A DNA stretch of 38,550 bases from Nemertoderma westbladi. Taxonomy: Eukaryota; Animalia; Xenacoelomorpha. The notes below the pieces were generated by a model. The model did no database searches, was not told the origin of the DNA, and saw nothing but the letters and a program-made list of their open reading frames with translations. Below, in pieces: positions 6,627-36,850 of the stretch. How positions within the stretch are numbered: position 1 is the first letter of the stretch; each line of letters opens with the position of its first letter. The position numbers were made by a program, and so were the translations under genes. Where the stretch lies: NCBI GenBank assembly GCA_032718475.1, contig JAUCBJ010000499.1:1-38550 (forward strand), read 5' to 3'.

Positions 6627-6773
6627 ATGTAATATTATGGTTTTGTTCAGAAATATAAAAAATGAGGAAGCACGTCATCGGGGGTTGAACCGGGGCTATA
6701 CGTACGCACCCCGGTGACGTGCTTCGTGGTCGTGATTTTTTTTCAATTTCTGAACAAAACCATAATTTTACAT
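6627..6773. mobile_element. Foldback relic of a diverged relative of the 340-bp hammerhead repeat
   Basis: tgtaatattatggttttgttcagaa...cgtcatcgggggttgaacc..gctatacg matches the 340-bp unit and is followed by its own inverted copy. No CUGAUGA core remains. Confidence 0.75.
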
Positions 6774-6930
6774 AATTAATTATAATAGCATTAACAGCTC
6801 AACTCCAATTCATAAAATTTAAACATGTCGAATTTATATTTCTACTGTCATTCACTATTATGATTTATAAAAATCCTTGCGTTTTCACCCTATATACAAA
6901 TTCTGGACGCTTATTTGTCATTCAACAATG

Positions 6931-7054: not shown

Positions 7055-7870
7055 TTACTTAACTCTCATTTTGGAGGATTTTGTGTTTAAATTGTCATCA
7101 TCGCTCAACATCCTCTTGCGTTTAATGCGTTCCAACTGGAGCAACAGATTCGCACTGCAGAGTTGGTCGTCGAAACCTGGAGGATCACAGTAGAATAAAC
7201 GACCCTTAAGGCCGATGCAACGTTCCACCTCTAGGAGGTGCTGGCAAACTCGAGTCATTGCTCTAGAAACGGGATTACACAGAGCAACTCTCTCACCCGG
7301 AAACAAGTCAACGAAATGCACCAAAAGGGTTGTGGCGCAACCCATTCTGCGAAACCCCTTGCAGACATAAATAGTATCCAAAGTGTTTATCTGCCAGACG
7401 TCCAACACGTTAGATGTAGTTGAGGTGCAGCGCGGGTTGTATGTATAGAAACCGATCGCCGATTCATCACGCCACAGCAACGCTGCTCTCTGCGACTCCG
7501 GGTAGGGCGCATACGCTGGATCAATCGCTGGGTTTCGCTCGTTCATCATGTAAATCGCCTGGGATAGAATAAATAAACGCAGACGATCCTGGAAACAGTT
7601 GACAAATTCCACGCCATCCTGCGTTAATCTGTTGAACAAACATTGTTTCAGGGAAACCCATTCACCGTACCAATACACTCCTGAACAGTGATTGGTCGGG
7701 CACACCAATAACGTGATAATAGGTGAGTCTCCTGATTGATTGGGATATAGAGGCCTGTTTATCGCTCTCAGGGACTTATCTCCACAAACAGCACATATAC
7801 TAATTTTCACTTCCTTAAGAGGATCAGCGGAGACATCTAGTTCGACATGGGTCCATTGCACTTCAGTCAT
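7055..7870 (-). CDS. FAM169-family (GNAT-like fold) protein, 271 aa, nested antisense in a GALNS intron
   Basis: Segments LFILSQAIY, LLWRDESAIGFYT, LDTIYVCKGFRRMG and FVDLFPGERVALCNPVSRAM resemble the FAM169A/B conserved domain. Basic KRKR near the C-terminus is NLS-like. ORF is intact. Confidence 0.78.
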   Translation of the reverse strand: MTEVQWTHVELDVSADPLKEVKISICAVCGDKSLRAINRPLYPNQSGDSPIITLLVCPTNHCSGVYWYGEWVSLKQCLFNRLTQDGVEFVNCFQDRLRLFILSQAIYMMNERNPAIDPAYAPYPESQRAALLWRDESAIGFYTYNPRCTSTTSNVLDVWQINTLDTIYVCKGFRRMGCATTLLVHFVDLFPGERVALCNPVSRAMTRVCQHLLEVERCIGLKGRLFYCDPPGFDDQLCSANLLLQLERIKRKRMLSDDDNLNTKSSKMRVK

Positions 7871-8047
7871 TGCTATTTAATTATAAAACAATGATGATTA
7901 TCGAACCATTGAGGGGTGTTTAGCTGATCGGGTAGGGGAGAGTCTTGATAATCGCCTATCTTGATAATATATTAATTCTCATGACATAAATCACTGACGA
8001 AGTTAGCTAGTAAAGCATAATAAATATTACTCGCAATTTATTCTTAA

Positions 8048-11132: not shown

Positions 11133-13147
11133 AATCACTTATTAAATACCCGTTACAACTACAGGAGTATAGTCGAGGAGTACAGTACAGCATCTGTAAA
11201 TGCCATATCAACAGTAACAGCCAATCACTTATTAAATACCCGTTACAGCTACAGGAGTACAGTCGAGGAGTACAGTTACAGCATCTGTAAATGCCATACA
11301 ACAGTAACAGCCAATCACTTATTAAATACCCGTTACAGCTACAGGAGTACAGTCGAGAGGAGTACAGTACAGCATCTGTAAATGCCATACAACAGTAACA
11401 GCCAATCACTTATTAAATACCCGTTACAGCTACAGGAGTACAGTCAAGGAGTACAGTACAGCATCTGTAAATGCCATACAACAGTAACAGCCAATCACTT
11501 ATTAAATACCCGTTACAGCTACAGGAGTACAGTCGAGGAGTACAGTACAGCATCTGTAAATGCCATACAACAGTAACAGCCAATCACTTATTAAATACTT
11601 GATTATGATGATTATTTAGTAGTACTTATTAAATACCCGTTACAGCTACAGGAGTACAGTCGAGAAGTACAGTGTACAGCATATGTAAATGCAATACAAC
11701 AGTAACAGCCAATCACTTATTAAAAATCCGTTACAGCTACAGGAGTACAGTCAAGGAGTACAGTACAGTATCTGTAATCTGTAAATGCCATACAACAGTA
11801 ACAGCCAATCACTTATTAAATACCCGTTACAGCTACAGGAGTACAGTCAAGGAGTACAGTACAGCATCTGTAAATGCCATACAACACTAACAGCCAATCA
11901 CTTATTAAATACCCGTAACAGCTACAGGAGTACAGTCGAGAAGTACAGTACAGCATCTGTAAATGCCATATAACAGTAACAGCCAATCACTTATTAAATA
12001 CCCGTTACAGCTACAGGAGTACAGTCGAGGAGTACAGTACAGCATCTGTAAATGCCATACAACAGTAACAGCCAATCACTTATTAAATACCCGTTACAGC
12101 TACAGGAGTACAGTCGAGGAGTACAGTACAGCATCTGTAAATGCCATACAACAGTAACAGCCAATCACTTATTAAATACCCGTTACAGCTACAGGAGTAC
12201 AGTCAAGGAGTACAGTACAGCATCTAGTAAATGCCATACAACAGTAACAGCCAATCACTTATTAAATACCCGTTACAGCTACAGGAGTACAGTCGAGAAG
12301 TACAGTACAGCATCTGTAAATGCCATACAACAGTAACAGCCAATCACTTATTAAATACCCGTTACAGCTACAGGAGTACAGTCAAGGAGTACAGTACAGC
12401 ATCTGTAAATGCCATACAACAGTAACAGCCAATCACTTATTAAATACCCGTTACAGCTACAGGAGTACAGTCAAGGAGTACAGTACAGCATCTATAAATG
12501 CCATACAACAGTAACAGCCAATCACTTATTAAATACCCGTTACAGCTACAGGAGTACAGTCGAGGAGTACAGTACAGCATCTGTAAATGCCATACAACAG
12601 TAACAGCCAATCACTTATTAAATACCCGTTACAGCTACAGGAGTACAGTCGAGGAGTACAGTACAGCATCTGTAAATGCCATACAACAGTAACAGCCAAT
12701 CACTTATTAAATACCCGTTACAGCTACAGGAGTACAGTCAAGGAGTACAGTACAGCATCTATAAATGCCATACAACAGTAACAGCCAATCACTTATTAAA
12801 TACCCGTTACAGCTACAGGAGTACAGTCAAGGAGTACAGTACAGCATCTATAAATGCCATACAACAGTAACAGCCAATCACTTATTAAATACCCGTTACA
12901 GCTACAGGAGTACAGTCGAGGAGTACAGTACAGCATCTGTAAATGCCATACAACAGTAACAGCCAATCACTTATTAAATACCCGTTACAGCTACAGGAGT
13001 ACAGTCAAGGAGTACAGTACAGCATCTGTAAATGCCATACAACAGTAACAGCCAATCACTTATTAAATACCCGTTACAGCTACAGGAGTACAGTCAAGGA
13101 GTACAGTACAGCATCTGTAAATGCCATACAACAGTAACAGCCAATCA
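11133..13147. repeat. 89-bp tandem repeat, about 22 copies
   Basis: Unit aatcacttattaaatacccgttacagctacaggagtacagtc[g/a]aggagtacagtacagcatctgtaaatgccatacaacagtaacagcc. The ORF track shows the 89-bp period. One interruption near 11598-11625. Confidence 0.97.
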
Positions 13148-13760: not shown

Positions 13761-14396
13761 CTAACAAAAACGAAAATAATAAACGTTCTTGGCAAACTAA
13801 GGTAAAGGTAAGATGGAACATCGTACCTGGGTATGGTTTTTCCTAACCAAAACAATAAACATCATTTCTATTGAGGGTAAGGAACTGGTCGTATACGTTA
13901 TATATATATATATATATATATATACTGTACCTTTATCATAAATAAAAAGCACACCCACACCCCCTATCCCTATCCCTATACTTCATATTAGTATTAAATA
14001 TGTTACTAGCCTAATTAAAACACACTAGACTAAGCAGGTAGAGGGTAGGATGAACCCGAAACAACGTTATTACTTGGTCGGATACCTCGATTATGTTAAA
14101 TAAAGGCGGGATATTCAAACTTTATATAAATAATACTGCTGTACAACAGCTGCTGAGCTGTAGGCCTATGCGGTACCACTACTGCACTACTACCGACTAT
14201 CGACATAAACTCGAAACTATAGGACTACAGTACAGATTACTCGATGTACAGATATCCCTGATTCCTGCATTCACTACAGAACATTAATTATGATTACTTT
14301 CTTCTTTGATGTCACAACTCACAAGACTATGAACCGTCAATGCTTGCAAGCTTGTTTGTATAGGCCTATTAATAGTAAGTTTAGTAGGGTTCCTGC

Positions 14397-15104
14397 ATGG
14401 TTCCGGTAATGGACGATGCATATGATGAGTCAGGGAATAACGTGTTCACCCGGTCGATAGAATCATTCCTACACCCAGAAAGCCCATTACATATCGCACA
14501 ACGCTACGTTGGTGACGTAGGCTGTGTAGTCTGGGACGCTGCCTTGTCTCTGTGCGCCTACATGGAAACGCCAGACTTCGCGTCTCGTCTGACTCTGCCT
14601 ATCACACCCAATATAATCGGCAGACCGTTAGCTGGTCTAACCGCTCTGGAACTAGGGGCGGGCACCGGTGCGCTAGGTCTACGCGCGTTTCAACTGGGAG
14701 CACGTGACGTCACTGTCACTGATTTACCCGACTTACTACCACTAATTAACGACAACATTAATCTGAACTCTCATTGTGCTGGTGGACGTATAAAGGCCGA
14801 GGTATTGATTTGGGGCCAAGATGTATCGAGTTTCCAACCACCTGATTTGCTTTTACTATCTGATTGTATTTACTACAAGGAATCTTTGAACTCATTAGTC
14901 TCGACTATCACTGAACTGTCTTCCAATAAAACTGATGTTGTTATGAGTTACGAATCCAGAACGACGGGCAATAAAGCGGCTTTGGAGAGGGAATTTTTAG
15001 AGTTGATATCAAAGATTTTTACGATTCGTGAGATTCCTCTGTCATGTCACCATGTGGAGTTTTGTTGCCAAGATATTCACATTCTTTGGTTAAACAAACG
15101 CTGA
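14397..15104 (+). CDS. VCPKMT: VCP lysine methyltransferase (METTL21D), 235 aa, nested on the same strand in a GALNS intron
   Basis: VGCVVWDAA, SAM-binding LELGAGTG, VTDL, DCIYY and the YESRTTGN...DIHILW tail are characteristic of VCPKMT. Start could be ATG 14397 or 14409. AATAAA at 15455-15460. Confidence 0.9.
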   Translation: MVPVMDDAYDESGNNVFTRSIESFLHPESPLHIAQRYVGDVGCVVWDAALSLCAYMETPDFASRLTLPITPNIIGRPLAGLTALELGAGTGALGLRAFQLGARDVTVTDLPDLLPLINDNINLNSHCAGGRIKAEVLIWGQDVSSFQPPDLLLLSDCIYYKESLNSLVSTITELSSNKTDVVMSYESRTTGNKAALEREFLELISKIFTIREIPLSCHHVEFCCQDIHILWLNKR

Positions 15105-16810: not shown

Positions 16811-17053
16811 GTGACCCATCAGCCGTCGACTGTGATGGATCTGTTCACCACGGTTCTGGATATCGGTAAGGTACCGAAACCGACCGACAGACAGATCGAC
16901 GGACAATCCCTTCTACCGCTACTCCTACACGGAAACACTGATAATAACCGACCTATATTCTATTACCGTGGCAACGAGTTGATGGCTGTTCGTGTTGGAA
17001 TATACAAAGCTCATTACTGGACCTGGACTAACTCCATCAAGGAATTCAACACG
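16811..17053 (+). CDS. GALNS: GALNS exon: VTHQPSTVMDLFTT...IDGQSLLPLL...RPIFYYRGNELMAVRVGIYKAHYWTWTNSIKEFNT
   Basis: Acceptor aacag ends at 16810; first donor gttagt at 17054; 243 nt, phase 0-0. Matches GALNS RPIFYYRG...KAHFWTWTNS. Confidence 0.92.
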
Positions 17054-20000
17054 GTTAGTAGTTACTGGACCTGGACTAACTCCATCAAGGAATTCAACTC
17101 GGTTAGTAGTTACTGGACCTGGACTAACTCCAAGGAATTCAACTCGGTTAGTAGTTACTGAACCTGGACTAACTCCATCAAGGAATTCAACTCGGTTTGT
17201 AGTTACTGGACCTGGACTAACTCCAAGGAATTCAACTCGGTTAGTAGTTACTGGACCTGGACTAACTCCAAGGAATTCAACTCGGTTAGTAGTTACTGGA
17301 CCTGGACTAACTCCATCAAGGAATTCAACACGGTTAGTAGTTACTGGACCTGGACTAACTCCATCAAGGAATTCAACTCGGTTAGTAGTTACTGGACCTG
17401 GACTAACTCCAAGGAATTCAACTCGGTTAGTAGTTACTGAACCTGGACTAACTCCATCAAGGAATTCAACTCGGTTAGTAGTTACTGGACCTGGACTAAC
17501 TCCACCGGGAATTCAACTCGGTTAGTAGTTACTGGACCTGGACTAACTCCAAGGAATTCAACTCGGTTAGTAGTTACTGGACCTGGACTAACTCCATCAA
17601 GGAATTCAACACGGTTAGTAGTTACTGGACCTGGACTAACTCCATCAAGGAATTCAACACGGTTAGTAGTTACTGGACCTGGACTAACTCCATCGTGAAT
17701 TCAACTCGGTTAGTAGTTACTGGACCCGGACTAACTCCAAGGAATTCCACTCGGTTAGTAGTTACTGGACCTGGACTAACTCCATCAAGGAATTCAACTC
17801 GGTTAGTAGTTACTGGACCTGGACTAACTCCAAGGAATTCAACTCGGTTAGTAGTTACTGAACCTGGACTAACTCCATCAAGGAATTCAACTCGGTTAGT
17901 AGTTACTGGACCTGGACTAACTCCACCGGGAATTCAACTCGGTTAGTAGTTACTGGACCTGGACTAACTCCAAGGAATTCAACTCGGTTAGTAGTTACTG
18001 GACCTGGACTAACTCCATCAAGGAATTCAACTCGGTTAGTAGTTACTGGACCTGGACTAACTCCATCAAGGAATTCAACACGGTTAGTAGTTACTGGACC
18101 TGGACTAACTCCATCAAGGAATTCAACACGGTTAGTAGTTACTGGACCTGGACTAACTCCACCGGGAATTCAACTCGGTTAGTAGTTACTGGACCTGGAC
18201 TAACTCCAAGGAATTCAACTCGGTTAGTAGTTACTGGACCTGGACTAACTCCATCAAGGAATTCAACACGGTTAGTAGTTACTGGACCTGGACTAACTCC
18301 ATCGGGAATTCAACTCGGTTAGTAGTTACTGGACCTGGACTAACTCCAAGGAATTCAACTCGGTTAGTAGTTACTGGACCTGGACTAACTCCATCAAGGA
18401 ATTCAACACGGTTAGTAGTTACTGGACCTGGACTAACTCCATCAAGGAATTCAACACGGTTAGTAGTTACTGGACCTGGACTAACTCCACCGGGAATTCA
18501 ACTCGGTTAGTAGTTACTGGACCTGGACTAACTCCAAGGAATTCAACTCGGTTAGTAGTTACTGGACCTGGACTAACTCCATCAAGGAATTCAACACGGT
18601 TAGTAGTTACTGGACCTGGACTAACTCCATCGGGAATTCAACTCGGTTAGTAGTTACTGGACCTGGACTAACTCCAAGGAATTCAACACGTTTGTAGTTA
18701 CTGAACCTGGACTAACTCCATCGGGAATGCAACTCGGTTAGTAGTTCCTGGACCTGGACTAACTCCAAGGAATTTAACTCGGTTAGTAGTTACTGGACCT
18801 GGACTAACTCCAAGGAATTCAACTCGGTTAGTAGTTACTGGACCTGGACTAACTCCATCAAGGAATTCAACACGGTTAGTAGTTACTGGACCTGGACTAA
18901 CTCCATCAAAGAATTCAACTCGGTTAGTAGTTACTGGACCTGGACTAACTCCAAGGAATTCCACTCGGTTAGTAGTTACTGGACCTGGACTAACTCCATC
19001 AAGGAATTCAACTCGGTTAGTAGTTACTGGACCTGGACTAACTCCAAGGAATTCAACTCGGTTATTAGTTACTGGACCTGGACTAACTCCAAGGAATTCC
19101 ACTCGGTTAGTAGTTACTGGACCTGGACTAACTCCATCAAGGATTTCAACTCGGTTAGTAGTTACTGGACCTGGACTAACTCCAAGGAATTCCACTCGGT
19201 TAGTAGTTACTGGACCTGGACTAACTCCATCAAGAAATTCAACTCAGTTAGTAGTTACTGGACCTGGACTAAGTCCAAGGAATTCAACTCGGTTAGTAGT
19301 TACTGGACCTGGACTAACTCCAAGGAATTCAACACGGTTAGTAGTTACTGGACCTGGACTAACTCCAAGGAATTCAACTCGGTTAGTAGTTACTGGACCT
19401 GGACTAACTCCATCAAGGAATTCAACTCGGTTTGTAGTTACTGGACCTGGACTAACTCCAAGGAATTCAACTCGATTAGTAGTTACTGGACCTGGACTAA
19501 CTCCATCAAGGAATTCAACACAGTTAGTAGTTACTGGACCTGGACTAACTCCAAGGAATTAAACTCGGTTAGTAGTTACTGGACCTGGACTAACTCCATC
19601 AAGGAATTCAACTCGGTTAGTAGTTACTGGACCTGGACTAACTCCAAGGAATTCAACTCGGTTAGTAGTTACTGGACCTAGACTAACTCCATCAAGGAAT
19701 TCCACTCGGTTAGTAGTTACTGGACCTGGACTAACTCCATCAAGGAATTCAACTCGGTTAGTATTTACTGGACCTGGACTAACACCAAGGAATTCAACTC
19801 GGTTAGTAGTTACTGAACCTGGACTAACTCCATCAAGGAATTCAACCGTTTAGTAGTTACTAGACCTGGACTAACTCCAAGGAATTCAACTCGGTTAGTA
19901 GTTACTGGACCTGGACTAACTCCAAGGAATTCAACTCGATCAGTAGTTACTGGACCTGGACTAACTCCATCAAGGAATTCAACTCGGTTAGTAGTTACTG

Positions 20001-22207
20001 GACCTGGACTAACTCCAAAGAATTCCACTCGGTTAGTAGTTACTGAACCGGGACTAACTCCATCAAGGAATTCAACTCGGTTAGTAGTTACTGGACCTGG
20101 ACTAACTCCATCAAGGAATTCAACTCAGTTAGTAGTTACTGGACCTGGACTAACTCCAAGGAATTCAACTCGGTTAGTAGTTACTGGACCTGGACTAACT
20201 CCATCAAGGAATTCAACCGTTTAGTAGTTACTACAAAAAAAAAGTTTTTTACTAAGTAGTTACTGGACCTGGACTAACTCCATCAAGGAATTCAACTCGG
20301 TTAGTAGTTACTGGACCTGGACTAACTCCAAGGAATTCAACTCGGTTAGTAGTTACTGAACCTGGACTAACTCCATCAAGGAATTCAACCGTTTAGTAGT
20401 TACTGGACCTGGACTAACTCCATCAAGGAATTCAACTCGGTTAGTAGTTACTGGACCTGGACTAACTCCAAGGAATTCAACTCGGTTAGTAGTTACTGAA
20501 CCTGGACTAACTCCATCAAGGAATTCAACCGTTTAGTAGTTACTACAAAAAAAAAAGTTTTTTACTAGAGTAGTTTTTTACTAAGTAGTTACTAGACCTG
20601 GACTAACTCCAAGGAATTCAACTCGGTTAGTAGTTACTGGACCTGGACTAACTCCAAGGAATTCAACTCGATTAGTAGTTACTGGACCTGGACTAACTCC
20701 ATCAAGGAATTCATCTCGGTTAGTAGTTACTGGACCTGGACTAACTCCAAGGAATTCAACTCGGTTAGTAGTTACTGGACCTGGACTAACTCCAAGGAAT
20801 TCAACTCGGTTAGTAGTTACTGGACCTGGACTAACTCCAAGGAATTCAACTCGGTTAGTAGTTACTGGACCTGGACTAACTCCAAGGAATTCAACTCGGT
20901 TAGTAGTTACTGAACCTGGACTAACTCCATCAAGGAATTCAACCGTTTAGTAGTTACTACAAAAAAAAAAAGTTTTTTACTAGAGTAGTTTTTTACTAAG
21001 TAGTTACTAGACCTGGACTAACTCCAAGGAATTCAACTCGGTTAGTAGTTACTGGACCTGGACTAACTCCAAGGAATTCAACTCGATTAGTAGTTACTGG
21101 ACCTGGACTAACTCCATCAAGGAATTCATCTCGGTTAGTAGTTACTGGACCTGGACTAACTCCAAGGAATTCAACTCGGTTAGTAGTTACTGGACCTGGA
21201 CTAACTCCAAGGAATTCAACTCGGTTAGTAGTTACTGGACCTGGACTAACTCCAAGGAATTCAACTCGGTTAGTAGTTACTGGACCTGGACTAACTCCAA
21301 GGAATTCAACTCAGTTAGTAGTTACTGGACCTGGACTAACTCCATCAAGGAATTCAACTCGGTTAGTAGTTACTGGACCTGGACTAACTCCATCAAGGAA
21401 TTCAACTCGGTTAGTAGTTACTGGACCTGGACTAACTCCATCAAGGAATTCCACTCGGTTAGTAGTTACTGGACCTGGACTAACTCCATCAAGGAATTCA
21501 ACTCGGTTAGTAGTTACTGGACCTGGACTAACTCCATCAAGGAATTCAACTCGGTTAGTAGTTACTGGACCTGGACTAACTCCAAGGAATTCAACTCGGT
21601 TAGTAGTTACTGGACCTAGACTAACTCCATCAAGGAATTCCACTCGGTTAGTAGTTACTGGACCTGGACTAACTCCATCAAGGAATTCAACTCGGTTAGT
21701 AGTTACTGGACCTGGACTAACTCCAAGGAATTCAACTCGGTTAGTAGTTACTGGACCTGGACTAACTCCATCAAGGAATTCCACTCGGTTAGTAGTTACT
21801 GGACCTGGACTAACTCCATCAAGGAATTCAACTCGGTTAGTAGTTACTGGACCTGGACTAACTCCAAGGAATTCAACTCGGTTAGTAGTTACTGGACCTG
21901 GACTAACTCCAAGGAATTCAACTCGGTTAGTAGTTACTGGACCTAGACTAACTCCATCAAGGAATTCCACTCGGTTAGTAGTTACTGGACCTGGACTAAC
22001 TCCATCAAGGAATTCCACTCGGTTAGTAGTTACTGGACCTGGACTAACTCCATCAAGGAATTCAACTCGGTTAGTAGTTACTGGACCTGGACTAACTCCA
22101 AGGAATTCAACTCGGTTAGTAGTTACTGGACCTGGACTAACTCCATTAAGGATTTCAACTCGGTTAGTAGTTACTGGACCTGGACTAACTCCTAGGAATT
22201 CAACACG
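17014..22207 (+). repeat. Minisatellite of 48/45-bp units, roughly 105-110 copies, derived from the GALNS exon end plus splice donor
   Basis: Unit ttactggacctggactaactcc(atc)aaggaattcaac[t/a]cg-gttagtag. The first unit is the true exon end. Confidence 0.97.
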
Positions 22208-23525: not shown

Positions 23526-25504
23526 GTACGTTAGTTGTATGCTATCAGCTATTATTTCCTAATCCGGTTACGCGCAATATAAACGAGTCAATCTAGCATA
23601 AAACCCAAAAGTTATTCGCAATCAACCCGTCTTCACGTTTATGGGATTCTATATTATCTTGTTAATGACCAAAATAGCTATAAAAAATTAATTTGCTTAG
23701 AATATATATTTATTCATTGAAATTCTACATGAATTATTTGCATAAAACAAGCCAAACAAAAGGAACAGTAGGTAAGAGTAAGTTAGTAATGTTCCAGAAT
23801 AATTTAATTAATTGCACAATATGCTACAATTCAATGGGGAATGTCTACAATTTATACTGATCTGGCCTGTCAAACGTAAATTGTTATATCTCGGTAACTA
23901 TAAGTCGCATCCAATTTTTAAGTATATAAAAGATTTAAAGATATTAATAAGGTAACTGATGTAAAAAAAATTTACAATTCCACTGCAAGGAAATTTCGTA
24001 ATTCCATTAATGTTAGAGACGATTTTTCACAAAATGAAATTGGGATTTCTCTATTGATTTTAGATGCAATTTATTTATTTAATAATTGTAATTTATTATT
24101 AGTTTAAAAACCACAATAGTTGATAATATAACAAATTTACATACACCCGTTTAGTAGAGAAGTTGTGTAAAATTGCCAAAATTCGTATTAAAAATGGTTA
24201 AATGATTAGACAAATTTATGTTGCTCTATAAACTAAATTGGTAACTATCTACTGTAGAAGTGCATAGTTCAGTTAATCGATAGTAACTGGACTAAAGATT
24301 GTCTTACTGAAATTGGGGAAAATCCAACCAATAGACCCCTTGTTGCTATGTAAAATCCCTCACGCTCACTCTAGGGAACGAAACATAATTGAAAGTGATC
24401 CGCATAATTTATATTTATAGACTTTTTTGGTGATATTAGCAAGAGTCAAAAAAATTGTATAGTTTTGGGTTACCCCTTCTTTTTCGCTAGATTGACTGAA
24501 CTAGTAGCCAATCAGCCATCTCGGCCCCCAAGTATACCAGACTTTCTGCTTTTTTTTAATTTTTTTATTGAATTAATTAATTAAATTAATTTATTTATTT
24601 GTTAATTTAATGAATAATTAACGCACATAAATGAGATTGAGTATTATTGTTTAACAACATTTTTTATTTATAGTCTCTTGTTGCAATTCTAAAATACGCC
24701 GCAGATAAAGGCAAGCTTATATAATGCCTCCGTACTGCAACGCATACAGCCGAAAACGGTCTCCGGAATTTTTAGCCCACGAGTATCCTTAGCCCACGAG
24801 TATCCTTAGCCCGCGAGTATCCTTAGCCCGCGAGTATCCTTAGCCCACGAGTATCCTTAGCCCGCGAGTATCCTTAGCCCACGAGTATTCTTAGCCCGCG
24901 AGTATCCTTAGCCCACGAGTATCCTTAGCCCGCGAGAATCCTTAGCCCACCAGTATCCTTAGCCTGCGAGTATCCTTAGCCCGCGAGTATCCTTAGCCCG
25001 CGAGTATCCTTAGTCCACGAGTATCCTTAGCCAACGAGTATCCTTAGCCCGCGAGTATCCTTAGCCCGCGAGTATCCTTAGCCCACGAGTATCCTTAGTC
25101 CGCGAGTATCCTTAGCCCGCGAGTATTCTTAGCCCGCCAGTATCCTTAGCCCGCGAGTATCCTTAGCCCGCGAGTATCCTTAGCCCACGAGTATCTTTTG
25201 CCCGCGAGTAATCTTAGCCCGCGAGTATCCTTAGCCCGCGAGTATCCTTAGCCCGCGAGTATCCTTAGCCCACGAGTATCTTTTGCCCGCGAGTATTCTT
25301 AGCCCGTGGGTATTCTTAGCCCGCAAAATGAGTCTTCTTAGCCCGGGATAATTACTTGACACCAGGTATTCTTAGCCCGCGAGAATTCTTAGCCCGCAAC
25401 AGGAGGGAATTCTTAGCCCGCACACAGTGGGTATTCTTAGCCCGATGCGCTATGATATGGGAGTGGGAATTTGTGCTTGGGTGCTTGGGAATTTATTTAT
25501 AAGA

Positions 25505-26360
25505 ACAACTTATACTAAATACTAATAATACTACTAGGTCGAGCGAACTCGGACAGTGGAAATGAGATCCTTCCAGGCTTCCCGATTCTCCATAGTTGTC
25601 GCAATTTCGTTTCTCCCAAGTTCAGTATCCCTTTCAAGTTGATCTATGGCCGGTCGTCCACGACTACGCTTTCCATGAGTTGGTTGCCAGAGAAGTAGAT
25701 CTGGTATGACCTCGTCTTTACTTCGCCAGCAGTGCCCACTGAATCGTAATCTGCGTTCACGGAGGGTGGTTGATACAGGTGGTATTGTACCATAAAGCTC
25801 GGCGTTTGTAATGTGTTGTCTCCAGCTGATGTTTAGGGCTGCCCTTAGTAGGCTTGTGTAGCAAACATAAATTCGTTGTTGAAGTGATTTAGTCAGTGTC
25901 CAGGTCTCACCCCCGTATAAAAATACACTTTCCACTGTGGCTCGAAAGAACTTAGTCTTCAGGTGCCTGGAGAGATCTGATTTCCAGATGGTATCCATTT
26001 TTGATAGAGCTACCCCAAGCCTTTGCTTTCTTAACTTCTATGTCCTTTTTGCTACTCTCTATCCATGATCCAAGGTACTAGAAGTCGTCGACCTTCCTTA
26101 GTTGATTATTATCAATGGTTATCCAGTTTCCATCAACATTAAAGGTCATGAATTCGGTCTTGGTAGCATTTATATGCAATCCAACCTCCTTAGCAGCCCT
26201 CTCCACTTTATTTAGTAGAAGCTGTGCATCTGCTAGCGTATTAGAGAGCAGGGCGATGTCATCCGCAAAGTCGGTGTCTGTGACTGTAGTTGCCGGATAT
26301 CTACTACTTCTGCGTTCTTGAAGTGTGAATCCCAGATCTTCACCCTTTGTGGCCGTCCTG
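25505..26360 (-). mobile_element. 5'-truncated RTE-type LINE fragment
   Basis: Minus strand encodes DTDFADDIALL, DFxYLGSWI and FFRATVESVFLYGGETWTLT...RLRFSGHCWR. It has a stop and a frameshift, and a TAG/TAT short-repeat tail. Confidence 0.88.
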
Positions 26361-28084: not shown

Positions 28085-28265
28085 CTCGTTGTGGTTATTA
28101 AATCATTGCCTTGAATTCAAGTGTCACTGGTGGTCGTGGGTTCTATCCCCGCATGGGGGGGAGGCTGGGTCATTGGAGTTTTCGGTTCTGTACGATTTTT
28201 GCCTGGGCGAATATCCATCTGCCTTACATCCTTAAATAGTAGCTAAATCAGTACCAGTTTCCTCT
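28085..28265 (+). mobile_element. Diverged copy of the tRNA-derived SINE
   Basis: B-box-like ggttctatccc and the shared catccttaaatagtagctaaatcagta segment. Confidence 0.55.
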
Positions 28266-28775
28266 GGGATAATTGATAATAAATAGTTCTGGTGGCAAAT
28301 ATATCGTCAGACTTTGTGCGTAGTCCTGGGCTGAAAGGCCGTTATATAACTTTAATTTACTTATTTTTTTATGTAGAACGGATTCAAGTTAACTTCCACC
28401 TGGGTTGAAACTCGAGAATAATAAAGATTGTGTAAAATAAAAGCAGATTGAATAACTTCGGTCACATTGGATCTGCTAGATATTTTTTGGAGACGTTACT
28501 TGACTTACCTTTTAGTTATATTTACTTCCGCATATAAACTTTTTGAATTACCAATATTAAGATTAAATATTTCCCCACATGTTCTCGGGTCAAAGAGACC
28601 GTATTAATTAATTTTCCAAAAAGTTTCGTTTAACATACCGTAGTATCATTGAGTACAACTTATGAAGATAATTAAATAAATTGGAGATGAGCTGTTGCAA
28701 CTGTAATTAAAGGTGTAATATTATGGGTTTGTTCAGAAGTGGAAAAAATGGGAGCGCGTCACCGGGGGTTGAACC

Positions 28776-28821
28776 AGCGCTATACGCACGTTTCGGCCTA
28801 ACAGGCCTCATCAGTAGCGCT
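28776..28821 (-). ncRNA. Type I minimal hammerhead ribozyme, copy 1
   Basis: Minus strand reads AGCGCUA-CUGAUGA-GGCCU(GUU)AGGCC-GAA-AC(GUGC)GU-A^UAGCGCU: 7-bp stem I, intact core, 5-bp stem II, short stem III, GUA cleavage triplet. Confidence 0.9.
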
Positions 28822-29115
28822 AACCAGCTCAGCCACTAGCCCCTGACACTCGCAGTCCCACCTAATCCACTTCTATTGAACGGGCAGTCTTAAGTTGCAA
28901 ATATTCTATCTCTAACAGCGGACCTAACGGCCTCAAGTATGCTAGAGTGAAACAGGAGGGAAGTACAAATAAATAAATATTCAGCTCGGTATTGCTGCCA
29001 GGTGATATTAATTAAATAAATTGGAGATGAGCTGTTGCAACTGTAATTAAAGGTGTAATATTATGGGTTTGTTCAGAAGTGGAAAAAATGGGAGCGCGTC
29101 ACCGGGGGTTGAACC

Positions 29116-29161
29116 AGCGCTATACGCACGTTTCGGCCTAACAGGCCTCATCAGTAGCGCT
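29116..29161 (-). ncRNA. Type I minimal hammerhead ribozyme, copy 2
   Basis: Same sequence as copy 1, 340 bp away. Confidence 0.9.
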
Positions 29162-29455
29162 AACCAGCTCAGCCACTAGCCCCTGACACTCGCAGTCCCA
29201 CCTAATCCACTTCTATTGAACGGGCAGTCTTAAGTTGCAAATATTCTATCTCTAACAGCGGACCTAACGGCCTCAAGTATGCTAGAGTGAAACAGGAGGG
29301 AAGTACAAATAAATAAATATTCAGCTCGGTATTGCTGCCAGGTGATATTAATTAAATAAATTGGAGATGAGCTGTTGCAACTGTAATTAAAGGTGTAATA
29401 TTATGGGTTTGTTCAGAAGTGGAAAAAATGGGAGCGCGTCACCGGGGGTTGAACC

Positions 29456-29501
29456 AGCGCTATACGCACGTTTCGGCCTAACAGGCCTCATCAGTAGCGC
29501 T
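29456..29501 (-). ncRNA. Type I minimal hammerhead ribozyme, copy 3
   Basis: Same sequence as copy 1, 680 bp away. Confidence 0.9.
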
Positions 29502-30040
29502 AACCAGCTCAGCCACTAGCCCCTGACACTCGCAGTCCCACCTAATCCACTTCTATTGAACGGGCAGTCTTAAGTTGCAAATATTCTATCTCTAACAGCG
29601 GACCTAACGGCCTCAAGTATGCTAGAGTGAAACAGGAGGGAAGTACAAATAAATAAATATTCAGCTCGGTATTGCTGCCAGGTGATATTAATTAAATAAA
29701 TTGGAGATGAGCTGTTGCAACTGTAATTAAAGGTGTAATATTATGGGTTTGTTCAGAAGTGGAAAAGCTCCCATTTTTTCCATTTCTGAACAAACCCACA
29801 ATATTACACCTTTAATTACAGTTGCAACAGCTCATCTCCAATTTATTTAATTAATATCACCTGGCAGCAATACCGAGCTGAATATTTATTTATTTGTACT
29901 TCCCTCCTGTTTCACTCTAGCATACTTGAGGCCGTTAGGTCCGCTGTTAGAGATAGAATATTTGCAACTTAAGACTGCCCGTTCAATAGAAGTGGATTAG
30001 GTGGGACTGCGAGTGTCAGGGGGTAGTGGCTGAGCTGGTT

Positions 30041-30073
30041 AGCGCTACTGATGAGGCCTGTTAGGCCGAAACG
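30041..30073 (+). ncRNA. Truncated hammerhead in the inverted copy
   Basis: agcgcta-ctgatga-ggcctgttaggcc-gaaacg runs straight into the flanking direct repeat, so the 3' strand of stem I is missing. Confidence 0.8.
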
Positions 30074-31624
30074 TATGAAGATAATGGTTGTCCATAAAAC
30101 TAGACAGCCAGCAAGCTGGCTAGAAGGAGCTCGGGGAAAGAATCATAGCCAAGACTATTACAAATGAACTATGTCAGTCAGTAAGTAAACTAAACAATTG
30201 TCTAAACTGTAAGGCGTGAGGCTAGCTGACTTTGTGGCTCGTCCCACATAATAAAAAATGAAACTTTGCTACCACTAACAAAAATATAATATGAAACAAA
30301 TAATTTAATTATCAAGCACGTTTACAAGATATAAGATTATCGAATATTTATAAAAAATGCCCATGAAGCACAACCAGGACACCGAGCGAGTGATGACCCT
30401 AAACCCACCATAGAACCACCCTATATTATAAATGCGACTCCATTTCCATACGAATTTTACAACAGCGGCTGCTAAGGCAATCAACCAATGCTGCATTATA
30501 GAACAAAACTAACAATAGAAAGGGGTAGCTATAGTTACTAAAACTAAAAACACAAACAAAGCGCAAATATCCTAGCTGTTCCACATCAGTGTCAGAAGTT
30601 CTAGTAAGATAATAATAGTGATAACAGTTTCATTCAATTTTTTGAATAAATACAAATTATTTAATATGTTATAGAGCAAATGTATAAACAAAAGCTCAAC
30701 TAATATTATGAAAATTGAAGGTCTAAACAATATGAAACAAATTAATACATTATCAAAGACAAATTAAATTTTAGCATCACAACAACTATATCCAAGAAAT
30801 TTAACTAAACCGCAAATCAGTCAAAGTGAAAAGGGGGGACAGTTCCCCCCTTCAACCCCCCTTTCAATAAGCACCCCGTCCCAAAAGCAAAGCCGCACCC
30901 AGACCCAGTCAAGCAGAATAACCTATGGAGATAGATATTATGACAACATACCCGGTTCTTTCAAATTTGCGTGATTTGAGTTTTATGCTCGCACCACTAT
31001 TTGTAAGAAATGTTAAAACTTATCTTACAGTATGCCAATGTAGTAATGGTATTAAAATATAATTAAATTAATTTACACTATTAATGCTTCAGCGAAAAAA
31101 TGATGCTAATCCTATGTAATAAAAAAAATAAGAATATTATTTTTAAGAACATACTACATATATCCTATACAAAATAATCAGCCCAGTGATTCGTGGAATA
31201 ATAATATAATCCTACTGCAGTGGTATATTTTATTTTGTTTATTGACAACTCAACTATTTTCTGTCTATCCCTGAGAGCTGATAAAGGATGTGTAGACTCA
31301 GCCAGCAGCCAGCAGCAGGAGCAGTGTAGTCAAGAAATTCTGTCTTGATGGAATTCTATCTCAGGCAGCCCTGCACTCAACCATTCCTACACAGCTATAT
31401 AGCTGCTGCAGCTCAGGGAGGAGTTGTTACTTTACCATTGCTTTTAATTTCGCGACAAAATAATTTCAAAAAAACGAAATATATCGAATACCACACATAG
31501 AATCGATCTGATATTTTGTAACGCGACTATGAACCACCAAAGCAATTTACTTGTAAAATTTCAACAAAATCGCCAGGCAGGAAGTGCCTGAACCTGGATA
31601 ATTATCAGTCAGTCAGTCAGTCAG

Positions 31625-32532: not shown

Positions 32533-33229
32533 GCGCAAAATGACCGCAAACACCAAACGTGTGTTTAGTTTGGGTTTGAGTTTGGGTTTGAGTTTGGGTT
32601 TGAGTTAGGGTTTGGGTTTGAGTTTGGGTTTGAGTTTGGGTTTGAGTTTAGGTTTGAGTTTGGGTTTGAGTTTGGGTTTGAGTTTGGGTTTGGGTTTGAG
32701 TTTGGATTTGAGTTTGAGTTTGAGTTTGGGTTTGAGTTTGAGTTTGGGTTTGAGTTTGGGTTTGAGTTTAGGTTTGAGTTTGGGTTTGGGTTTGAGTTTT
32801 GGTTTGAGTTTGGGTTTGAGTTTGAGTTTGGGTTTGAGTTTGGGTTTGAGTTTGGGTTTGAGTTTGGGTTTGAGTTTGGGTTTGAGTTTGGGTTTGGGTT
32901 TGAGTTTGGGTTTGAGTTTGGGTTTGAGTTTGAGTTTGGGTTTGAGTTTGAGTTTGGGTTTGAGTTTGGGTTTGAGTTTGGGTTTGAGTTTAGGTTTGAG
33001 TTTGGGTTTGAGTTTGGGTTTGAGTTTGAGTTTGGGTTTGAGTTTGGGTTTGGGTTTGGGTTTGAGTTTGGGTTTGAGTTTGAGTTTGGGTTTGAGTTTG
33101 AGTTTGGGTTTGAGTTTGGGTTTGAAAAATTAATTTAATTTAATTAAAAACATTTAGGGAGATGAGAAGATAACATAAGATAACAATGGCGGTGTTTCTA
33201 ACAATATTTCCTTTGCGGTCAATTTGCGC
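32533..33229. mobile_element. Inverted-repeat-flanked element containing a telomere-like (TTTGGG/TTTGAG)n tract
   Basis: gcgcaaaatgaccgcaaa (32533-32550) and tttgcggtcaatttgcgc (33212-33229) are inverted with one mismatch. The hexamer tract spans about 32565-33126. Confidence 0.65.
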
Positions 33230-35444: not shown

Positions 35445-36850
35445 GTTAAAGTAGATCTGGTATGACATGACTTTACGTTTATTTCTCCAGCAGTGCCCAC
35501 TGAATCTTAATCTGCGTTCACGGAGGGTGGTTGATACAGGTGGTATTGTACTATAAAGCTCGTCGTTTGTCATGTGTTGTCTCCACCTGATGTTTAGGGC
35601 TGCCCTTAGTAGTCTTGTGTAGCAACCATCAATCCGTTGTTCAAGTGATTTTGTCAGTGTTCAGGTCTCACCCCCGTATAAACGTACAGTTTCTACTGTA
35701 GCTCGAAAGAACTTAGTCTTCAGGTGCCGGGAGAGATCTGATTTCCAGATGGCATCCATTTTTGATAAAGCGACCCATGGCATTACTTTCCTAACTTCTA
35801 GGCCTATATCTTTTTTGCTACTCTCTAACCATGTACTGGAAGGAAGTCGTCAACCTTCCTTAGTTGATTATTGTCAATTGTTGTCAAGTTTCCATCAACA
35901 TTAAAAGTCATGAATTCGGTCTTGGTATCATGCAATCCAACCTCCTTAGCGGACACTTTATTAAGTAGCAGTTGTGCATCAGCTAGCGTATTAGAAAGCA
36001 GGGCGATGTCATCTGCAAAGTCGTGTCTGTGACTGTAGTTGTCGGATATCTGCTATTTCTGCGTTATTGTAGTGAGAATCCCAGATCTTCACCCTTTGTG
36101 GCCGTCCTCATTGCGTAATCCAGCACAATTACTAATAGTAATTGCACCAATGTTTTACATTGCAGTACGCCAGCTAGGATTGAGAAGAACTCAGTTTAAC
36201 CATTTGGTGAGAGTACTGCGATGGGAGTCCATGCTAGGCTCTAACTGCTGAGGACACCAAATCTCTGGATGGCACATTCACAAGAATGCTACGCCGGGTT
36301 CATTGTGTCAAGTACAATGCACACATCTCCAACCAGAAACTATATAACATTGGAGGTGTCTCATTGGTTCCCCCAAGCTTGACACTAGAACAAAATCGCC
36401 TCCGCTTTGCAGGACATTGCTTTCGCCGTGAGGACCAGCCAGTGCATAATCTTGTACTTTGGCAACCTCATGGGGTGAATAAGCATGGTGGACAGCCCAT
36501 GACTTTCTTGAGACGCATCTTAAAGGACACTGGCCTTGAAGATAAGGATGATCTAGCAAATGCCATGGGTGATAGGGAGTTGTGGCGGCGCAATTTTGTC
36601 GACAAGCCGGCACAGAATTTTTACACATGCAGCTGCAATGCAGCATGCCGATCCTAGTAGAGAGTACCTGAGCTTCTGCATCACAATATAACAATCCAAT
36701 GCCAGGGACAATAACTCCTGGTATTCCATAAGCTCTTAGGATTTCCAGCATTTTTCCTCTATGGATGGAGTCGAATGATTTCTTGAAGTCCACTAATATC
36801 AGAACTGCGGGTGCGTCTTTGACTTAATTCCCGCAATCAGTCTCCGTACT
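35445..36850 (-). mobile_element. Degenerate RTE-type LINE (same family as 25505-26360), interrupted by another LINE
   Basis: DFKKSFDSIHRGKMLEILRAYGIP at 36660-36793 and FFSILAGVLQ...IVLDYAMR at 36105-36200. The 35450-36106 part closely resembles 25700-26357. Confidence 0.85.
36217..36659 (+). mobile_element. RTE-type LINE 3' end inserted in the opposite orientation, with an 8-bp target-site duplication
   Basis: Encodes RLRFAGHCFRREDQPVHNLVLWQP...AMGDRELWR and ends tagtag. GAGAGTAC is duplicated at 36209-36216 and 36660-36667. Confidence 0.85.

Follow-up and report, generated by a model that had tools for sequence, protein, structure and literature searches.

A 340-bp tandem repeat in the window analysed here (the whole stretch of 38,550 nucleotides) raises the question of what a predicted self-cleaving ribozyme does between the two halves of a tRNA-type promoter. 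The preliminary description of this DNA had read the minus strand of one unit as an A box, a hammerhead, a B box and an oligo-T run, and had proposed that each unit may carry its own internal Pol III promoter, that self-cleavage would separate the two boxes, and that the rebuilding of an intact promoter could explain why the units are inserted in tandem. We lean, without great assurance, towards an account in which the cassette is a hammerhead set within tRNA-derived A and B boxes and belongs to a retrozyme copied by a Penelope-like element, the boxes serving as a Pol III promoter for an RNA of ~100 nt. With the ribozyme enclosed by a putative type 2 Pol III promoter and a terminator behind it, the family gives sharp predictions for where transcripts would start, be cut and stop, and thereby makes retrozyme transcription testable.

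Organization of the Cassette

The cassette lies on the minus strand from 28843 to 28743, and its letters read as first described. An 8-nt leader (from 28843) precedes the A box, TGGCTGAGCTGG (28835-28824), which corresponds to tRNA positions 8-19. After a TT spacer comes a complete type I hammerhead (28821-28776). Its parts are the 5' strand of helix I (7 bp; 28821-28815), the CUGAUGA core (28814-28808), a helix II of 5 bp with a GUU loop (28807-28795) followed by GAAA, a short helix III of 2 bp and a tetraloop between GAAA and GUA, the predicted cut after GUA (28783/28782) and the 3' strand of helix I (28782-28776). The B box, GGTTCAACCCC, occupies 28775-28765, so that 48 nt separate the two boxes, and a run of six T (T6; 28748-28743), the predicted Pol III terminator, stands 16 nt past it. 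The order A box, TT, hammerhead, B box, spacer (put at about 15 nt) and oligo-T is therefore as proposed. T6 is the sole T run of four or more on the minus strand of the 340-bp unit. An imperfect inverted repeat (28735-28758 / 28851-28874; 24 nt, 75%) encloses the cassette; the region as a whole (28735..28874, minus strand) has a fold z of -2.89, and T6 falls within the predicted flanking helix. The ribozyme does sit where the anticodon and variable arms of a tRNA would be, as had been suggested, but it additionally takes in the 3' strand of the D stem and the 5' strand of the T stem, which it uses as helix I.

The RF00163 (hammerhead type I) match spans 28777-28820 and model positions 1-45 of 45. 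It scores 23.4 bits (E 0.00077, for a searched stretch of 136 bases), below the gathering score of 34, and an Rfam scan of the whole window at the gathering threshold gave no match. Core letters are complete in all three full tandem units. The core and helix I show no variant at any of their 28 sites among the 40 of 101 variant rows listed (P 0.08). In computed folds, the hammerhead-competent structure lies 2.0-3.4 kcal/mol above the minimum-energy fold, which is not a hammerhead, and helix I has a pair probability of 0.12-0.29. Within the hammerhead-competent fold of the unit, the A box is predicted to pair with the B box, TGAGCT with GGTTCA, so that helix I is extended past a 4-nt GGUU bulge.

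Helix III offers a second kind of pairing. The majority letter at position 28787 turns it into a perfect palindrome, ACGTACGT, and this letter makes up 61,006 of 75,322 of the depth in sequencing run X2 (81%) and 25,197 of 27,230 in X4 (92%). Both forms of helix III are predicted to give an 8-bp duplex between two molecules, at -8.8 and -9.8 kcal/mol. The axolotl hammerhead HHR_Amex2, which like the cassette can form a helix III of 2 bp and a tetraloop, is described in the accounts cited as cleaving modestly when alone and better as a dimer (PMC7229834; 10.64898/2026.07.22.740005). The cassette RNA is predicted to cleave itself after 28783. A circular monomer would be 61% paired (z -0.9, with 21 of 100 shuffles equally stable), whereas the retrozyme monomers in the published accounts are more self-paired than this predicted 340-bp circle.

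CTGANGA..GAAA, as a bare pattern, has eight matches in the window; four lie outside the copies described here, one of them (25929-25962) within a reverse-transcriptase-like frame.

Origin of the A and B Boxes

Each of the two agrees fully with the Pol III consensus. When the hammerhead was fixed and the other 294 nt of the unit were shuffled by single nucleotides, 2 of 200,000 shuffles gave an A box at most 27 nt upstream together with a B box at most 24 nt downstream. A strict A-B pair, at whatever place in the unit, arose in 3 of 20,000. The 19-letter motif TGGCNNARYNGGTTAGCGC, generalized from the A box and the letters that follow it, is a signature of the tRNA D arm, and occurs in 95 of 167 tRNAs called by ARAGORN from at least 119 viral loci fetched with TGGCNNARYNGGTTAGCGC itself. 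A profile of 45 tRNAs that lack the motif matched the cassette twice, its two halves following the order of a tRNA (model positions 4-27 and 41-66), the single halves having E values of 8.7 and 1.6, neither significant alone. The shuffles, the occurrence of the D-arm motif in real tRNAs and the collinear profile matches bear out the view that the boxes are tRNA-like and non-random. Judged by sequence, their tRNA origin appears almost certain.

That the cassette is itself a tRNA gene can be rejected. ARAGORN calls no tRNA gene at the cassette, the Rfam tRNA model has no match there, and in the tRNA register only 3 of 7 acceptor pairs and 3 of 5 T-stem pairs are formed. A decayed cloverleaf with the boxes kept is as expected if what is maintained is the sequence of a promoter and not the fold of a tRNA. 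With the acceptor and T stems broken in this way, mimicry of a tRNA fold as an RtcB substrate is a weak proposal. A derivation of helix II from the anticodon arm of tRNA-Asn(GTT) was also considered. This tRNA ranks first of 61 distinct tRNA middles, yet the derivation is unsupported: when 3,000 random hammerheads were given this geometry, 386 reached an equal best score, and many members of the family have GAT as the loop. The best global tRNA matches to the cassette are Met, Asp and Ile tRNAs of viral contigs, in a set that had been pre-selected by TGGCNNARYNGGTTAGCGC.

Two other stretches of the window resemble tRNA. A further A/B box pair is found on the minus strand at 1311-1372, with a B box nearly identical to that of the cassette; it is the top tRNA-profile match of the window (E 0.05), and may be the head of a host SINE from which the cassette boxes could have come. 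On the plus strand, 28127-28156 is a T-arm-like stretch (tRNA profile E 0.75), possibly of a decayed SINE.

The Repeat and Its Insertions

The cassette recurs in an array of 3.2 identical units of 340 bp on the minus strand (28669..29766), which holds further copies at 29082-29183 and 29422-29523. Next to it is a fourth copy, inverted and 5'-truncated (29767..30073, plus strand), which has 3 differences from the tandem units. This copy has an A box (30027-30038, plus strand) and the hammerhead up to GAAACG; the cut site and the B box are absent. A target-site duplication of 12 bp, TATGAAGATAAT, surrounds the whole insertion (28661..28672 on the left, the last 4 nt being common to the unit end, and 30074..30085 on the right). 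The RNA 3' sides of the tandem and of the inverted piece face outward, and both are truncated at their junction. On the tandem side the end lies 74 nt beyond T6 and has the 4-nt overlap with the target, and the inverted arm ends inside helix III, ~6 nt short of the cut site. All three differences would fall in the inverted arm by random scatter with a P of 0.011, so that two template units are likely to have contributed: two RNAs, or one mixed multimer with a loss of 41 nt at the inversion.

A second insertion of the same family (6628..6819) consists of two short inverted pieces that are 79-85% identical to the repeat, with no obvious target-site duplication. Its minus-strand piece retains the B box and T6 intact; an A box and a core are absent from the insertion. 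The plus-strand piece stops at the unit position at which the main insertion stops, and the other piece ~42 nt earlier. For one Penelope-like element, a tail of 30-40 bp between two starts of reverse transcription is described in the sources cited (10.1101/2021.04.23.441226; PMC11167929), and the ~42-nt offset, seen in a set of two insertions only, is reminiscent of that tail. The inverted arm and the second insertion carry one box each; the three intact cassettes are all in the tandem.

The tandem region contains no open reading frame of 120 or more amino acids, its G+C content is 0.42 (29001-30000), and neither insertion end has an A-rich or LINE-derived tail. Rfam matches to microRNAs at 29700-29840 can be set aside, as they arise from the hairpin at the inversion junction. 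The element is very probably a non-LTR retrozyme with Penelope-type mobilization; within the window, neither an autonomous Penelope partner nor homology to a Penelope pLTR was identified.

The 340-bp family is highly repeated, as judged from public contigs matched to the repeat; these and the second copy in the window supply the evidence at family level. In three DNA runs, 2,427, 1,247 and 107 contigs match a 901-base stretch. In X2, which may be the source sample, the summed depth is about 1e5 in the repeat against 24 in unique flank, an excess of some thousand-fold that is not to be read as copy number. A further run, X1, which we guess to be RNA, gave a single contig of 371 nt on 29097-29466 with no differing letter and one gap; it fits the window's own unit variant, whereas the DNA runs are heterogeneous. 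Its length equals a 341-nt unit plus 30, which we infer to be the form that a closed loop takes in a 31-letter graph; since circular RNA and tandem DNA would look alike here, the contig is given no weight.

The exact pattern of hammerhead plus B box was found at 11 metagenome loci, none of which has an A-box match in the 60 nt upstream, at no viral locus, and at one prokaryote locus, where the cassette is absent by eye. The metagenome, viral and prokaryote collections contain little animal DNA, so that absence from them is no sign of rarity. Two motifs recur among the metagenome loci (one in L002, L005, L008 and L011, at about 1-115, the other in L001, L004, L007 and L010). In both, a T-arm-like stretch (GGTTCAA) comes after a hammerhead core, with no A-box match upstream, and several loci of this series have extra hammerhead cores some hundred bases apart. 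In full-text literature, mostly of the non-subscription kind and exclusive of Repbase, no description of a hammerhead between A and B boxes was found.

Other features of the window are given for completeness. An uninterrupted frame at 14388-15104 (plus strand) is METTL21D/VCPKMT-like, with best matches of ~48% identity in invertebrates, and marks the DNA as that of an animal. Another at 7055-7876 (minus strand) is protein-like and has no Pfam match; we take it to resemble the FAM169-type acetyltransferase folds. Pfam assigns no family to any of five nearby frames. Fragments like non-LTR reverse transcriptases were seen by eye at 25534-26037 and 36238-36823, where Pfam has no match. Long minisatellite arrays occupy 11133-13147, 17014-22204, 24772-25324 and 32563-33125, with periods of 89, 45/48, 17 and 12.

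Are the Boxes Used by Pol III?

Judging from their sequence, the boxes are rather probably used by Pol III. In the account that we favour, TFIIIC would assemble on them, and Pol III would start a few bases upstream of 28843 and end mostly at T6. The resulting RNA of ~100 nt would cut itself after 28783 into two fragments, one of about 61-66 nt and the other of about 37-40 nt, and would be aided in this by a second hammerhead paired to it at the self-complementary helix III. Within the RNA, the A box would pair with the B box and prolong helix I past the GGUU bulge. A longer read-through RNA, made by Pol III passing T6 or by Pol II from outside, or the circle derived from it, would be the template for new insertions. 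A Penelope-type enzyme would prime on both nicked strands of the target at internal RNA sites, and so produce both the tandem body and the arm inverted to it. It is this copying mechanism that would give rise to the tandem, and the intact A box-hammerhead-B box cassette would be preserved as a side effect.

The distinction between the RNA that is made most and the RNA that is copied rests on the terminator. A run such as T6 stops Pol III strongly. Two separate insertions nevertheless have ends 74 nt beyond it, ~240 nt of the unit remain after it, and the inserted DNA of the main insertion crosses T6 three times. Since the insertions end 74 nt past T6, the copied RNA is a read-through multimer or a circle rather than the ~100-nt product, and the view that the latter is itself copied has to be given up. 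The position of T6, 16 nt after the B box, also argues against routine Pol III multimers.

Better conservation of the boxes than of the rest of the unit had been put forward as the test of promoter function. It gives a divided answer. Among the 40 of 101 variant rows listed, on which all of the variant tests rest, a variant falls on 1 of the 23 box sites and on 12 of the 48 sites beside them (10 of 40 once CpG is removed), a contrast with a post hoc Fisher P of 0.03, so that the boxes do stand out from their neighbours. They do not stand out from the whole unit, with 1 variant observed in the same rows and 1.9 expected (P 0.42). The sole box variant in those rows, at 28828, is a common one. 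It leaves A-box position 15 a purine, and it changes a G-U pair into an A-U pair, strengthening the predicted pairing of the two boxes. In the diverged copy at 6628-6819, the intact B box and T6 have a P of 0.06-0.16 by chance. Because a pairing of A box with B box, and with it a longer helix I, is predicted, their conservation cannot prove promoter function, and the same predicted pairing in the ribozyme fold confounds it as a means of refutation. As a sign of a promoter, box conservation is only suggestive. A further point against promoter use is the 48-nt distance from box to box, wider than the 30-35 of the SINE consensus.

This pairing also underlies the alternative that survives best, which we consider possible but unlikely. 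The boxes would be left over from a tRNA or SINE head that was once captured, and would persist because their mutual pairing extends helix I and closes the RNA rod, and the element would be transcribed by read-through of a host polymerase with no part for Pol III. It would then be an ordinary retrozyme with a captured tRNA or SINE head. The pairing of TGAGCT in the A box with GGTTCA, the place of T6 inside the predicted flanking helix and the G-U to A-U change all fit such relics, and a promoter followed by a T6 stop would be useless for making multimers. According to the one review cited, moreover, metazoan retrozymes seem to be promoterless, with read-through as the model of their transcription (PMC7761336), which counts against Pol III use here. 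Pairing alone, however, needs no consensus letters, and both boxes match the Pol III consensus fully; T6 lies at terminator distance and has no rival T run of its length in the unit; and it is the B box and T6 that are intact in the diverged copy.

Does a Split Promoter Explain the Tandem?

The geometry of the original proposal is sound. The predicted cut falls between the boxes, so that cleavage would separate A from B, and a monomer cut from a multimer would have its box order permuted. The stronger form of the idea, that Pol III routinely passes T6 to make multimers and that the splitting of the promoter by cleavage selects for tandem or circle-derived copies, seems to us improbable. It has this geometry in its favour, the same logic in the published accounts of Sm-alpha, and the fact that the three intact cassettes are in tandem, only one box being left in the inverted arm and one in the second insertion. 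It has to contend with the strength of T6 as a stop, and with insertion ends that lie off the cut site, so that an insert need not be permuted when it is not in tandem. Tandem and inverted forms are, in addition, general in Penelope-like elements and retrozymes. Since they occur also in elements described as promoterless, no split promoter is needed for the tandem, and the rebuilding of a promoter does not explain it.

The weakest alternative, that the A and B matches are a chance likeness within an ordinary retrozyme, in the part around helix I that is rich in G+C, would suit the non-significant single halves and the absence of ARAGORN and Rfam tRNA matches, but is very improbable in view of the 2 of 200,000 shuffles, the collinear matches of both tRNA halves and a 19-letter D-arm motif that is common to 95 real tRNAs among the matches listed.

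An extension of the account that we favour is more tentative, and we regard it as doubtful. The same 23 letters might recruit Pol III as DNA and form the extended helix I as RNA, and the abundant ~100-nt product might cut multimers in trans into monomers ready for circularization. If so, a tRNA-type gene within the retrozyme would supply the RNA by which its transcripts are processed in trans. This RNA would diffuse and act as a partner hammerhead, the palindromic helix III pairing it with the rare multimers made by read-through. Boxes that work both as promoter and as ribozyme helix would be a compact example of dual coding, at the level of DNA and of RNA.

Comparison with Known Systems

The closest relatives in kind are the metazoan non-LTR retrozymes (PMC7229834; 10.64898/2026.07.22.740005). 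As described in these sources, they have a type I hammerhead in each unit, are non-coding tandems of 150-450 bp with a G+C content below 50%, lie between target-site duplications longer than 4 bp, and have been proposed to be mobilized by Penelope-like elements. The present repeat has the same hammerhead type, a short helix III like that of axolotl HHR_Amex2, 340 bp, a G+C content of 0.42, a duplication of 12 bp and the same proposed mobilization. It differs in the A and B boxes and T6 round the ribozyme, no Pol III promoter being mentioned in the retrozyme main texts searched. Self-cleavage and linear and circular monomer RNAs in vivo are features of the published retrozymes; here cleavage is predicted and circles are putative.

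Penelope-like elements (10.1101/2021.04.23.441226; PMC11167929) share with the repeat, by the accounts cited, partial tandems with an adjacent inverted 5'-truncated copy, target-site duplications of variable length, an AT-rich target and an internal start of reverse transcription. Extension on both strands, the internal start and the preference for AT-rich targets are described for one such element in vitro (same sources). The 340-bp repeat is distinguished from these elements by having no open reading frame. With tRNA-derived SINEs, as represented by the consensus in PMC8969392, the repeat has in common tRNA A and B boxes, a decayed cloverleaf and target-site duplications. In that consensus the box gap is 30-35, against 48 nt filled by the ribozyme here, and SINEs have a head, body and tail, whereas this element is tandem, circularly permuted and inverted, with no A-tail.

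Sm-alpha of Schistosoma was rightly named as a precedent. Sm-alpha and Sj-alpha, in the published descriptions, are tandem repeats that combine a type I hammerhead with Pol III boxes of tRNA origin, as here, and Sm-alpha forms an exception to the promoterless rule (PMC6765202, PMC2576457, PMC2770079, PMC4918200). That a copy standing alone is left with no promoter is argued in the same papers, and the idea that a tandem preserves it is therefore not new. In Sm-alpha, as there described, the ribozyme comes after a full tRNA-Gln module; here it stands between the boxes, the cloverleaf is lost, D-stem and T-stem strands are used as helix I, and T6 follows the B box. The 340-bp repeat would therefore work like Sm-alpha but is not a member of that family, from which it is set apart by layout. 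The class of element, the link to Pol III and the tandem argument all have precedent; what is unusual here is the placement of the ribozyme between the A and B boxes.
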